From sequence record OQ626344: a stretch of 64,000 nucleotides of DNA. One strand, written 5' to 3'. The position numbers were made by a program, and so were the translations under genes. The stretch comes from Escherichia phage S127 BCL3. Positions 57,875 to 60,974 of the stretch are shown piece by piece (within the stretch, counting starts at the first letter, position 1; every line of letters begins with the position of its first letter). A model generated the notes under the pieces. That model had not been told where the DNA came from. It did no database searches and saw only the letters and a program-made list of their open reading frames with translations.

Positions 57875-58921
57875 TTAAGCATAAGATATAGTGATCCATT
57901 GACCGTTTACAAATTTTTGAATAGCACCAGTCCAATAGTCACCTTGATACGGGTGTTTATAGGCGTAATTGCCGGAGCACATTACATGCCCAGGGTATAC
58001 TCTTGATTCTCTGTAGGTGGTTCTGAAGCGGTTTGCTATCCTTACATCTTCAACACCCCTACTAGGCATAGGGATAGTAAGGTTACCACTGCTATCTGCG
58101 CTACTACCATTTACCCTGCGGACCACGTTTCTCCCACCAACTGTTGCATATTGACCCCTGGCGGTTTTATCGTTACAATCTACTCTTCCACCTATTTGAG
58201 CGCTGCCGCAGGATTGTTGTCCATTAACAGTGGCTCTTGGTATCGTTACCGCATTGGCATTTGCAGAGGAGCTTTTTGCATCATTGCATTCAAGATTTCC
58301 TTGGATAGCCAGTCTTGCACGGTTGGCAGTTATAGCATTGAGCTTCATAGCCGAAAACACAGGCTGCCCACCAGAAGGTTGAAATCTCCAACGGAAACCG
58401 TCTATTTGGTGAGAAGGATCATCAAGGTCTGTGCCGTCAGCGCCACCGATGTTGTCCATAATCCAGAAATCCATCATCGTCTTGTCTGGAGTTATGGTGG
58501 TGTATATCGCCGCATTGTCTGTTGACGCAGATGCAAACTCAATTCTTTGAAGACCTAAAGTTTGAGTCTGGATCATTGTGTCTCCAGTCTTGTCAACATA
58601 AAGGTCATCCATTTCTTCAGGCGAGTATACATTGAGAACTTTACGTGCAGCAGCTTTGTCTGGAACGTCTGCCAGATTATTAGTGACCCTTAAGAATCTA
58701 TTATCCCATCCAGGGACAACATCTTCTGTTAAATGCTTTAGCCACGCAGAGAGCATATGGAGTTCAAAGTTAACAACTTCACATGCTATCCTTTGTGTCA
58801 TATCCCAACCTTTCAATCTCTCTTCTTTGCTCGGTTGAGATTTGTTCAACTCTCCTGTATTTTCAAGCACAACATCCTGATTGGCCCAAATATCAAGAGG
58901 GATAACTGGTTTAGTCATCAC
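57875..58921 (-). CDS. tail fibre protein, paralog B
   Basis: 348 aa; N- and C-termini (ends KFVNGQWITISYA) match 59934..60974. Confidence 0.65.
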   Translation of the reverse strand: MMTKPVIPLDIWANQDVVLENTGELNKSQPSKEERLKGWDMTQRIACEVVNFELHMLSAWLKHLTEDVVPGWDNRFLRVTNNLADVPDKAAARKVLNVYSPEEMDDLYVDKTGDTMIQTQTLGLQRIEFASASTDNAAIYTTITPDKTMMDFWIMDNIGGADGTDLDDPSHQIDGFRWRFQPSGGQPVFSAMKLNAITANRARLAIQGNLECNDAKSSSANANAVTIPRATVNGQQSCGSAQIGGRVDCNDKTARGQYATVGGRNVVRRVNGSSADSSGNLTIPMPSRGVEDVRIANRFRTTYRESRVYPGHVMCSGNYAYKHPYQGDYWTGAIQKFVNGQWITISYA

Positions 58922-59008
58922 GTTCTCCTGAGAAAATTCCTTAAGGACTATTTTAACACTTTAGAGAACAAAATGCAAGAACGGCATCCTTGCCGTTCTG
59001 ACCTTTGT

Positions 59009-59323
59009 TTACCTTTTACTATGCTCTACAAGCATGTGTAAAATCTTTTGCACATCAGCTCTGATACCGGAGACATCTGTCCTGACATCTTGCTTAAGGT
59101 CGTTAATATCGGCCTCTAGCTTACTTAACCGGGTCTCGATAATGGAATCAAGTCTATCTTTTGTAACCATGCTATTTTTCACTAAAATGAGGTCTTTCTC
59201 CAGCTCATCTAACCTCTTGGAAATGCCTTTCCATTTGGTGTGCCACTGGTTGAAAGCCCATACACAGATCGGGACAACGGTACCCATGCAGATACCGTAC
59301 AATGCCGCCAAATCCAACTCCAC
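59009..59323 (-). CDS. small membrane/coiled-coil protein
   Basis: 104 aa; N-terminal TM segment then charged heptad-like region. Confidence 0.45.
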   Translation of the reverse strand: MELDLAALYGICMGTVVPICVWAFNQWHTKWKGISKRLDELEKDLILVKNSMVTKDRLDSIIETRLSKLEADINDLKQDVRTDVSGIRADVQKILHMLVEHSKR

Positions 59324-59334
59324 AACACCTCCTC

Positions 59335-59919
59335 TTAGAGGGTAGGTCGTTCCGGGAAGAAAATGTCAGGGGCTTTAGATGTATCTATTTCAAGAAGTTT
59401 TACCCTGTACATTTTCAAATCTCTGATGTTGCGTTTCTGGTCATCAGTAAGATCATATTCAAGGTCAATCATGTCTTGATAGGCACCAATTCTAGCAGTA
59501 GCCCAAGCAAGTTCTGTCTCTATGACACCCTCTGCCTGTTGAACAAAGAACTCATTGTCTGCGACAAATTCATCACCAACTAAACGCAAAGCGTCGTGGT
59601 GGAGCATAATGTTTTCTGGTACCTCTTCTTTTTTGGCGATAACCACACGAAGACCTGGAGCAGGCCACAAGGCATCAGGCTCTTCTGTAGATGTCTTAAG
59701 AATACCCTTCTCGTCAACAAGTAGGAAGATACAGCCAGGATTTTCTTGTCGCAATGTTCGTGATTGGACATACCAATCGCCATCATCGTTACGTAAAAAA
59801 TATCCAGTGTATGCCGTGTAATCCTCCACCTCTTGAGGGGTAAGCTCCTTGGTCTCGTTGTTAGTGAAGTATTCGCCAGATCCCGGCTGGTAAAGTTTAA
59901 ACTCTTGAAGTATTTTCAT
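59335..59919 (-). CDS. tail fibre assembly chaperone, lambda Tfa-like
   Basis: C-terminus YRVKLLEIDTSKAPDIFFPERP matches the lambda Tfa C-terminus as I recall it (YRV.L..VDTS.APDIEWP); 194 aa. Confidence 0.65.
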   Translation of the reverse strand: MKILQEFKLYQPGSGEYFTNNETKELTPQEVEDYTAYTGYFLRNDDGDWYVQSRTLRQENPGCIFLLVDEKGILKTSTEEPDALWPAPGLRVVIAKKEEVPENIMLHHDALRLVGDEFVADNEFFVQQAEGVIETELAWATARIGAYQDMIDLEYDLTDDQKRNIRDLKMYRVKLLEIDTSKAPDIFFPERPTL

Positions 59920-59933
59920 GCTAGTCCTCCGAT

Positions 59934-60974
59934 CTACGCATAATTAACAGTGATCCATTGACCATTTACAAGTTTTTGTAAAGGTCCTGCCCAGTAGGTT
60001 GAACCACGCATCTCTTTTTTATCACCAAAATGCCAACCTGTGACAACGTAGCCGTTGCGAACTGGAGATTCAGAAACACCATCAACAAGTCTTGCACCGA
60101 TTCTGATATCCTGTACCCCTGTCTGCGGGATGGTGATCGTTACATCGCCGTTACCGTTAGCTGTCACTCCATTCACAGAGCGCACCACATTTCTGTTACC
60201 GACAACACAATGCTGGCTTCTTACAACCATACTGTCACAACTTGCGCCGCCATTAACATAAACGGACCCAGCTGTCAACTGACTAGCCACATTACAGTTG
60301 GTGAATGTTGCTGTGCTGCTAATGGTAAGGTTGTTACACCGCATGTTATCGACAACTTCAACATTACCTACCACTTTCAACAGCGCACGGTTAGCCGTGA
60401 TCGCGTTCAGGTACATCAAAGTGAACTCTGGATTAATGTCTGGCTGAGTTGGCTGGAATCTCCAACGAAACGCATCTACTGTAGATGTGCCACCATCATC
60501 AAACGCCCCAGTGTTATCACTTAACCCAAAGTCGAGAGTTGTCTTATCTGGACCAATAGTTGTCTCTATCCAAGCCTTATCTGTCTCGGCAGCTTTAAAG
60601 TTGATACGCTGCAAACCTAAGGGGCCTGTCATTGTATCGCCTGTAACTTTTACATACCTGGCGTCTGCCTCTTCCTTAGTAATAATCCCAAGGTTTCTAC
60701 GGGCAACAGGAATGTTCAAAAGATCACTTAGGTTATTATCACGTACCAGATAACGGCCTTCTTGGGCTGGGATCTGCTCGTCAGCAATATATTTTGCCCA
60801 AGTCCCGAGCATATTGAAAATATAGTTAAGTTCTTCACATGACGGCTTTTGACCAAGATCCCAACCTTTTCTCCACAAATCATCAATCGGGCGTAGCCTG
60901 TTCTGTCTGTGGGTGTTAGGCAGAACCTGATCCTCCTCTGCCCAAATCTCTAATGGAAAACTAGGTTTTGACAT
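59934..60974 (-). CDS. tail fibre protein, paralog A
   Basis: 346 aa; paralogous to 57875..58921; followed by Tfa-like gene. Confidence 0.65.
   Translation of the reverse strand: MSKPSFPLEIWAEEDQVLPNTHRQNRLRPIDDLWRKGWDLGQKPSCEELNYIFNMLGTWAKYIADEQIPAQEGRYLVRDNNLSDLLNIPVARRNLGIITKEEADARYVKVTGDTMTGPLGLQRINFKAAETDKAWIETTIGPDKTTLDFGLSDNTGAFDDGGTSTVDAFRWRFQPTQPDINPEFTLMYLNAITANRALLKVVGNVEVVDNMRCNNLTISSTATFTNCNVASQLTAGSVYVNGGASCDSMVVRSQHCVVGNRNVVRSVNGVTANGNGDVTITIPQTGVQDIRIGARLVDGVSESPVRNGYVVTGWHFGDKKEMRGSTYWAGPLQKLVNGQWITVNYA

Follow-up and report, generated by a model that had tools for sequence, protein, structure and literature searches.

A 64,000-nucleotide stretch of DNA from Escherichia phage S127 BCL3 (sequence record OQ626344; hereafter the window) contains two genes for fibre proteins, designated here STF-A and STF-B (STF, short tail fibre), in its 3.5-kb stretch 57500-61000. 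It is very probable that this locus is a Vequintavirus short-tail-fibre module in which two homologous fibres dock on the baseplate wedge, carry Mu-like tips and share one assembly chaperone of the Tfa family, and in which STF-B originated by duplication within the lineage. If this is correct, both fibres are functional and likely recognise different variants of the lipopolysaccharide (LPS) core. rV5-like phages are among the most often isolated phages of E. coli and are candidate agents of therapy and biocontrol. Their host range would be easier to predict and engineer if the LPS-core type read by each short fibre were known.

By near-identity and synteny, the window is assigned to an rV5/FV3-like (Vequintavirus) E. 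coli myophage and the region to its short-tail-fibre module. The stretch 57500-61000 matched 116 phage records at 90-98.5% DNA identity, and 111 of the 116 cover at least 80% of it. The closest is Escherichia phage B9-1 (98.5%), followed by ECP26, FV3, rV5-type phages and BASEL isolates, all of which are Vequintavirus; the locus has about 95-97% DNA identity in most of the genus. The order and sizes of the genes around the module are identical to those of rV5 gp27-gp37, with all module genes on the minus strand, and the locus itself is near-identical in sequence to, and syntenic with, rV5 gp29-gp34.

A reading of the DNA made earlier from its letters alone (the sequence-only reading) had proposed two paralogous fibre genes, and the proteins, both encoded on the minus strand, are clear paralogues. 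BLASTP aligns STF-A and STF-B end to end with 153 identities in 356 positions (43%, E 3e-95), with insertions and deletions (indels) in the shaft, and both proteins match phrog_4465 over their full length. The N- and C-terminal motifs cited in support of the proposal are found in both fibres. However, these end motifs are no special sign of the pair; in an alignment of 25 homologues, the N-terminal domain, a VGGRNVVR-VNG hinge and a QKLVNG-W strand are conserved family-wide. The suggested pattern of conserved termini and a divergent centre also does not describe the alignment, where divergence is patchy and the block of residues 101-210 is among the best conserved. In bins of 20 columns, identity is approximately 60% at columns 1-20, 25-35% at 21-100, 45-65% at 101-220 and 20-25% at 221-260, followed by 60% at 261-280, 40% at 281-320, 25% at 321-340 and 69% over the last 16. 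Within Vequintavirus, STF-A is 97-100% identical to its orthologues among the records listed, and STF-B is 95-99% identical to its own.

Both fibres begin with a domain homologous to the part of a related fibre that attaches to the baseplate. A phmmer search of the PDB matched residues 1-108 of STF-A to the short tail fibre of Pectobacterium phage phiTE (9cuy, E 1.5e-19) and the N-terminus of STF-B to the same region (residues 1-~110, E 1.4e-8), and a profile of the fibre family matched the phiTE STF N-terminus with an E value of 1.3e-34. Homology to residues ~1-100 of the phiTE STF was thus found for each paralogue. Residues 3-92 of the phiTE STF form a trimeric joint bound to baseplate wedge 1 (PDB 9CUY). 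By homology, the N-terminal ~100 residues of STF-A and STF-B would form such a joint and dock on the wedge, and each protein presumably forms a homotrimeric short fibre on the periphery of the baseplate. The description of the pair as paralogous receptor-binding proteins is borne out to the extent that their baseplate-attachment domains are homologous and both match the phiTE STF in 9CUY. The claim that they share a common attachment scaffold is weakened by changes in STF-B. In the N-terminal domain, 46 positions show at least 85% conservation across 21 outgroup homologues; STF-B has lost 16 of these and STF-A 6, leaving 30 and 40 in place, respectively. The family motif PIDDLW has become PSKEER in STF-B, and P19, I30, L33, W34 and Y62 are lost in STF-B though invariant in the 21 outgroup homologues and STF-A. 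P4, P7, W11 and A12 are kept. The residues that separate STF-B from STF-A provide concrete targets for mutagenesis.

The C-terminal ~60 residues of both fibres are predicted to form a tip like that of Mu GpS. In the phmmer search of the PDB, STF-A also matched, through its residues 286-343, the C-terminus of tail fibre protein S of Mu in the complex of S with its chaperone (5yvq, E 1.4e-6). The family profile A1, which includes STF-B, matches both 5yvq (E 5.7e-13; two stretches, one in the shaft and one in the tip) and the S/S' chimera of Mu (8JU3), so the C-terminal ~60 residues are homologous to 5YVQ. An AlphaFold2 monomer model of STF-A, built from the 25-sequence alignment and used solely for Foldseek (mean pLDDT 62, pTM 0.32), gave a single significant match, 5yvq_A (E 1.3e-6), in agreement with the sequence evidence. 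The terminal receptor of Vequintavirus is outer-core LPS glucose according to BASEL host genetics (PMC8594841). Because the terminal receptor lies there both in LL12 and in the BASEL host genetics, the tips of both fibres are expected to bind the LPS outer core, and both fibres would adsorb irreversibly by binding the LPS core.

The two tips have diverged from each other. The tip of STF-A is 58-61% identical to those of the fibres of Av-05, the phi92-like phage PaulScherrer and 52-kb Rosemountvirus phages, and that of STF-B is 33-41% identical to the same tips. A loop of the form GW-FGDKKE-RG is conserved in all tips of the A type that were compared; STF-B has SGNYAYKHPYQGD instead, at the place where STF-A has GWHFGDKKEMRGS. 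It seems likely that STF-B has shifted in specificity and possibly also in its docking site. The tip-coding segment of STF-A (59934-60110) was compared with positions 3001-3171 of the locus of Salmonella phage birk (L010). Outside the tip, the fibres of the Rosemountvirus phages, which are unrelated myophages, and of the phi92-like phages differ from STF-A; together with the 58-61% identity within the tip, this indicates that tip modules have been exchanged.

The gene that follows STF-A, a chaperone gene of the lambda/Mu Tfa type, had been read as lambda Tfa-like, with the likeness at its C-terminus. Residues 120-192 of its product match Pfam Caudo_TAP (PF02413, profile positions 59-130) with an E value of 6.7e-12 and 46.1 bits, above the gathering score of 22.1, and this match lies within the C-terminal 73 residues, as had been proposed. 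The protein also matches phrog_136, "tail fiber assembly protein" (E 7e-36). The gene begins 15 nt past the STF-A stop on the same strand, and a Tfa gene likewise lies directly downstream of the fibre gene in Av-05, GAP31, PaulScherrer and birk; in birk, two consecutive Tfa genes follow the fibre. Searched against the PDB, the window Tfa did not match GpU directly and gave spurious matches solely (complement receptor, PdaA). Tfa proteins consist of a variable N-terminal domain that binds the fibre and conserved C-terminal helices that trimerise (PMC9608196). In the window protein, gp32 in rV5 numbering, trimerisation is expected of the C-terminal helices, and the variable N-terminal domain would hold the tip of the fibre. 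TfaMu is reported to remain on the fibre tip (PMC10579305), and gp32 would probably stay on the virion as TfaMu does in Mu. The N-domain of the window Tfa is 31% identical to that of PaulScherrer (E 7e-11) and 33% identical to that of Av-05, both of which have tips of the A type, and 23% identical to that of GAP31, which has a tip of another type. These values are suggestive of covariation between the N-domain and the type of tip. A tblastn search of the 64-kb window found no second Tfa-like gene. Both fibres retain the motifs that frame the tip, VGGRNVVR-VNG and QK-VNGQWIT, and for this reason the single Tfa most likely folds both tips.

The surroundings of STF-B may indicate how it entered the module. 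The single-fibre phages Av-05 (Avunavirus) and GAP31 (Seunavirus) have the order STF-Tfa-104aa-157aa-88aa-581aa, where the numbers denote the lengths of the encoded proteins. The 104-aa protein of the window matches phrog_5345 (E 1e-48), and its description as a transmembrane (TM) and coiled-coil protein lying between the fibres is accurate, as a single hydrophobic segment at residues ~3-25 is followed by coiled-coil-like sequence. However, it is not tied to the possession of two fibres, because it is conserved downstream of Tfa in Av-05 (gp102) and GAP31 (gp228), at the same position, in the same PHROG and with 32-33% identity. The 88-aa protein, whose gene begins 10 nt past the STF-B stop, is of the membrane type as had been suggested (phrog_1322, "membrane protein", E 2.7e-32), but it is not a helper specific to fibre B; its orthologues in Av-05 (gp104) and GAP31 (gp230) are 51-52% identical, belong to phrog_1322 and are encoded directly upstream of the gene for the 581-aa fibre. 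Since both small genes are conserved in these single-fibre phages, they are judged to be older than STF-B and therefore not its dedicated partners. Between them, Av-05 and GAP31 encode a 157-aa polytopic membrane protein (phrog_7451; positions 6949-7422 of the Av-05 locus, L003, and 6961-7434 of the GAP31 locus, L005). STF-B occupies the exact position of this gene (57875-59008 of the window), and no remnant of it was found anywhere in the window. STF-B is separated from the 104-aa gene by 87 nt, the sole sizeable intergenic gap of the module, in which a hairpin is followed by a T-rich run; the corresponding genes of Av-05 and GAP31 overlap without a gap. The hairpin is a candidate for a partial terminator or for an element of RNA stability, and it may lower or separate the expression of STF-B.

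The distribution and phylogeny of the fibres are consistent with a duplication confined to Vequintavirus and with a higher rate of change in STF-B. tblastn found two STF copies in every Vequintavirus record listed and, among the matches listed, one copy in Avunavirus (Av-05), Seunavirus (GAP31, PVP-SE1), Klebsiella and Proteus phages of the Mydovirus-like group and phi92-like Justusliebigvirus. A diverged lineage with the same gene order has an STF-A that is 74% identical (P0002) and an STF-B that is ~78% identical (P0005). A neighbour-joining (NJ) tree groups the two fibre types as sister clades, and the stem branch of STF-B (0.234) is longer than that of STF-A (0.116). Ratios of nonsynonymous to synonymous substitution (dN/dS), with HMD-6, nom and rV5 as reference phages, are 0.015-0.02 for STF-A, 0.044-0.072 for STF-B and ~0.05 for Tfa. 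Because these ratios are low, both fibres are by this measure maintained under strong purifying selection. It seems likely that STF-A was duplicated within the Vequintavirus lineage and that the new copy landed between two pre-existing genes for small membrane proteins, displacing the gene for the 157-aa polytopic protein. STF-B would then have evolved faster, chiefly in its docking domain and one tip loop, while still under purifying selection.

What STF-B does with its altered ends can be read in several ways. One possibility, tentative on present evidence, is that STF-B was neofunctionalised after the duplication in Vequintavirus, with a different docking position, a different LPS-core chemotype as its target (through the SGNYAYKHPYQGD loop) and dependence on Tfa in trans. 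If so, one chaperone services two diverged clients. The narrower proposal that STF-B docks, by its remodelled N-terminal domain, away from the wedge site of STF-A, for example on the 690-aa gp34-like protein, the 581-aa fibre or STF-A itself, to give six plus six fibres in place of a mixed population on six sites, is plausible, though rather unlikely, and several observations speak for it: the 16 lost positions, P19, I30, L33, W34 and Y62 among them; the single wedge-1 site per protomer in phiTE; the report of both paralogues in rV5 virions in the main text of PMC3606486; and the additional 690-aa structural protein encoded beside the fibre genes in Vequintavirus and Avunavirus. Yet the N-terminus of STF-B still matches the phiTE docking domain and keeps 30 of the 46 positions, including P4, P7, W11 and A12, and no baseplate structure of a Vequintavirus sensu stricto phage was found in the literature.

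Alternatively, the fibres could have separate helpers, Tfa serving fibre A alone and fibre B relying on the 88-aa and/or the 104-aa membrane protein. The closeness of the 88-aa gene to STF-B, the greater likeness of the Tfa N-domain to the Tfa of phages with A-type tips and the divergence of the STF-B tip from that type speak for this proposal, but it is very improbable. Both small genes are found, at identical positions, in two phages without a fibre B, Av-05 and GAP31, neither product resembles a known fibre chaperone in Pfam, PHROG or NCBIfam, and a membrane-anchored protein would be an unlikely chaperone for a fibre assembled in the cytoplasm; STF-B also retains the family-wide motifs that frame the tip. 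Very improbable, too, is the assembly of STF-A and STF-B into heterotrimers on the shared Tfa, as one composite short fibre. The equal length of the fibres, the 45-65% identity of the shaft block at residues 101-210, the conserved C-terminal tip strand and the single Tfa gene would permit it. The overall identity of 43% and the shaft indels argue against it, and the relatives with a single copy are taken as showing that the fibre works as a homotrimer. Because a hairpin-containing gap separates the paralogues, different expression levels of STF-A and STF-B are suggested, which also disfavours mixed trimers. We know of no precedent for heterotrimers among fibres of the Mu S or P2 H type.

Two homotrimeric fibres that share one Tfa and derive from a duplication within the lineage remain the preferred interpretation, against which several results must be set. 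The phiTE baseplate has one wedge-1 site per protomer, and thus six STF sites (PDB 9CUY), which two species of fibre would have to share or extend. The sister relationship of the STF-A and STF-B clades has a bootstrap value of 70/100, a moderate level of support for duplication within the lineage, and STF-A is closer to the Av-05 fibre (48-52% identity) than to STF-B (43-45%). In view of these two results, STF-B may instead go back to a more ancient duplication, with the copy lost from other genera, or have been acquired from an unsampled relative. Searched alone against the PDB, STF-B had no direct match to Mu S, yet it aligns to STF-A throughout. The AlphaFold monomer model of STF-A has low confidence, which is expected for a trimeric fibre. 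Finally, the presence of gp30, gp32 and gp33 in the rV5 virion rests on the list of virion proteins in the main text of PMC3606486.

The fibre pair, its chaperone and their ancestry in Mu GpS/GpU are already known, because two publications describe the same arrangement, and the module does not represent a novel type of system. Kropinski et al. (2013, PMC3606486) reported that gp30 and gp33 of rV5 are 42.3% identical and possibly recognise two LPS chemotypes, and in their annotation gp32 is an assembly protein of the Caudo_TAP family and gp31 a membrane protein with one transmembrane domain (TMD); the virion proteomics in the main text lists gp30, gp32 and gp33. Maffei et al. (2021, BASEL, PMC8594841, S5D Fig) described for Vequintavirinae sensu stricto a pair of paralogous short tail fibre proteins with a chaperone, and related them by homology to the locus of phi92-like phages and, in the end, to GpS/GpU of Mu. 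The present analysis adds the site at which STF-B was inserted, the lack of linkage between STF-B and its small neighbours, and the residues that separate STF-B from STF-A.

Comparison with related systems shows which parts of the module are shared. The window has the same genes as rV5 gp33/gp32/gp31/gp30/gp29, in the same order and with the same sizes (346, 194, 104, 347 and 88 aa), and nothing essential differs. The last 86 residues of STF-B (57875-58132) occur in the genus as two alleles that are ~94% identical, an FV3 type, carried by the window and found in 15 records at at least 99% identity, and an rV5 type, found in 95 records in the 90-95% band. STF-A has at least 98% identity in each of the Vequintavirus records listed. 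The likeness to Mu GpS (5YVQ) extends from the tip (Mu S 438-503) to part of the shaft (Mu S 150-262), and in Mu, too, the gene after the fibre gene encodes a Tfa-family chaperone that remains on the fibre, and the receptor is the LPS core (PMC8594841). Mu differs in that inversion supplies an alternative tip (S/S', U/U') to its one fibre gene, in place of two complete co-expressed paralogues, and the N-terminus of Mu S is unrelated to the phiTE-type docking domain of STF-A and STF-B. The phiTE STF (9CUY/9MJN; Certrevirus, Vequintavirinae) shares the N-terminal ~100 residues and the extreme C-terminal strand IQKKVNGVWVTI, but it is 554 aa long, has a long coiled coil, Ig-like domains and another middle region, is present in one copy and is proposed to bind flagella. 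In Av-05, GAP31/PVP-SE1 and the phi92-like phages, an orthologous STF (38-48% identity) is followed by Tfa and then by a small TM and coiled-coil protein, which in a phi92-like phage belongs to a different PHROG. Further downstream, Av-05 and GAP31 also have in common with the window the genes for the 88-aa protein and the 581-aa fibre; they differ in having one fibre and the phrog_7451 protein where Vequintavirus has STF-B.

The short tail fibre of T4, gp12, has an analogous role, as a trimer attached to the baseplate that adsorbs irreversibly by binding the LPS core. It uses the chaperone gp57A, not Tfa. The rV5 authors reported a similarity of the rV5 short tail fibre to T4 gp12 by HHpred (PMC3606486). 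That match was not reproduced here; no chain of T4 gp12 (PDB 1PDI/1H6W) was among the phmmer and hmmsearch matches to the PDB at E <= 0.1-1 or among the Foldseek matches.

The features of the locus are listed in Table 1. ATG 58918, which has AGGAG 6 nt upstream, is preferred as the start of STF-B over GTG 58921, the boundary given by the sequence-only reading; GenBank likewise uses the 1044-nt form.

Table 1. Features of the short-tail-fibre locus and its flanks, with window coordinates
Feature	Coordinates	Strand	rV5 counterpart	Family or basis
690-aa virion protein with N4 gp65-type NCTSP domains, upstream of STF-A	60987-63059	-	gp34	
STF-A, short tail fibre in the ancestral position, 346 aa; N-terminal baseplate-docking domain, shaft and Mu GpS-like C-terminal tip (predicted)	59934-60974	-	gp33 (by synteny)	
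Tfa / Mu GpU-type assembly chaperone, 194 aa	59335-59919	-	gp32	Caudo_TAP, phrog_136
104-aa protein, N-terminal TM helix and coiled coil	59009-59323	-	gp31	phrog_5345
Hairpin, 9-bp stem and 4-nt loop, then T-rich run	58978-58999	-		consensus scan and sequence
STF-B, derived second short tail fibre, 347 aa	57875-58918	-	gp30	
88-aa small membrane-type protein	57599-57865	-	gp29	phrog_1322
581-aa fibre, phiTE gp241-like long tail fibre	55844-57589	-	gp28	phrog_4549

An Rz-like inner-membrane spanin (i-spanin) was considered for the 104-aa protein and rejected. Its architecture fits, but it matched no spanin family in Pfam, PHROG or NCBIfam, and no lipoprotein open reading frame on the minus strand, as expected of an outer-membrane spanin (o-spanin), adjoins it. 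The Rz/Rz1 pair of rV5 and PVP-SE1 adjoins the large terminase gene (PMC7344957), and Table S3 of the rV5 paper lists the orthologue gp31 as "membrane protein, 1 TMD" (PMC3606486). In Pfam the 104-aa protein gave some weak matches (XhlA, apolipoprotein, EzrA and others), every one below the cut-off and typical of coiled-coil bias. A scan of the five module proteins and the 157-aa protein of Av-05 against NCBIfam matched no family.

The module is flanked by genes for two other virion or fibre proteins. The 690-aa protein matches Pfam TIM-barrel_NCTSP (E 6.6e-80), NCTSP_N (6.8e-13) and Calx-beta (1.3e-5), and rV5 Table S3 lists gp34 as "structural protein (MS evidence)" (PMC3606486; MS, mass spectrometry). 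Its NCTSP domains are those of the non-contractile tail sheath receptor-binding protein of the N4 gp65 type, and it may be the component discussed for Vequintavirus as binding the N4 glycan receptor or enterobacterial common antigen (ECA). The 581-aa fibre matches phrog_4549 (E 2.5e-250) and is 42-43% identical to Av-05 gp105 and GAP31 gp231; PF26208/PF26209 (Phage_phiTE_241_N/C) are recorded on its orthologue in the loci L007-L009. Some GenBank records mis-annotate this fibre as "polymer-forming cytoskeletal protein", because of a weak match to a bactofilin-like beta-helix. A further point of annotation concerns 16-21 GenBank records named "Campylobacter phage" (MG0656xx, e.g., MG065662 and MG065635; host C. 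jejuni), which are >95% identical to the locus. Because of this identity to an E. coli Vequintavirus locus the host label is doubtful; it is probably wrong, or the preparations held contaminating coliphages.

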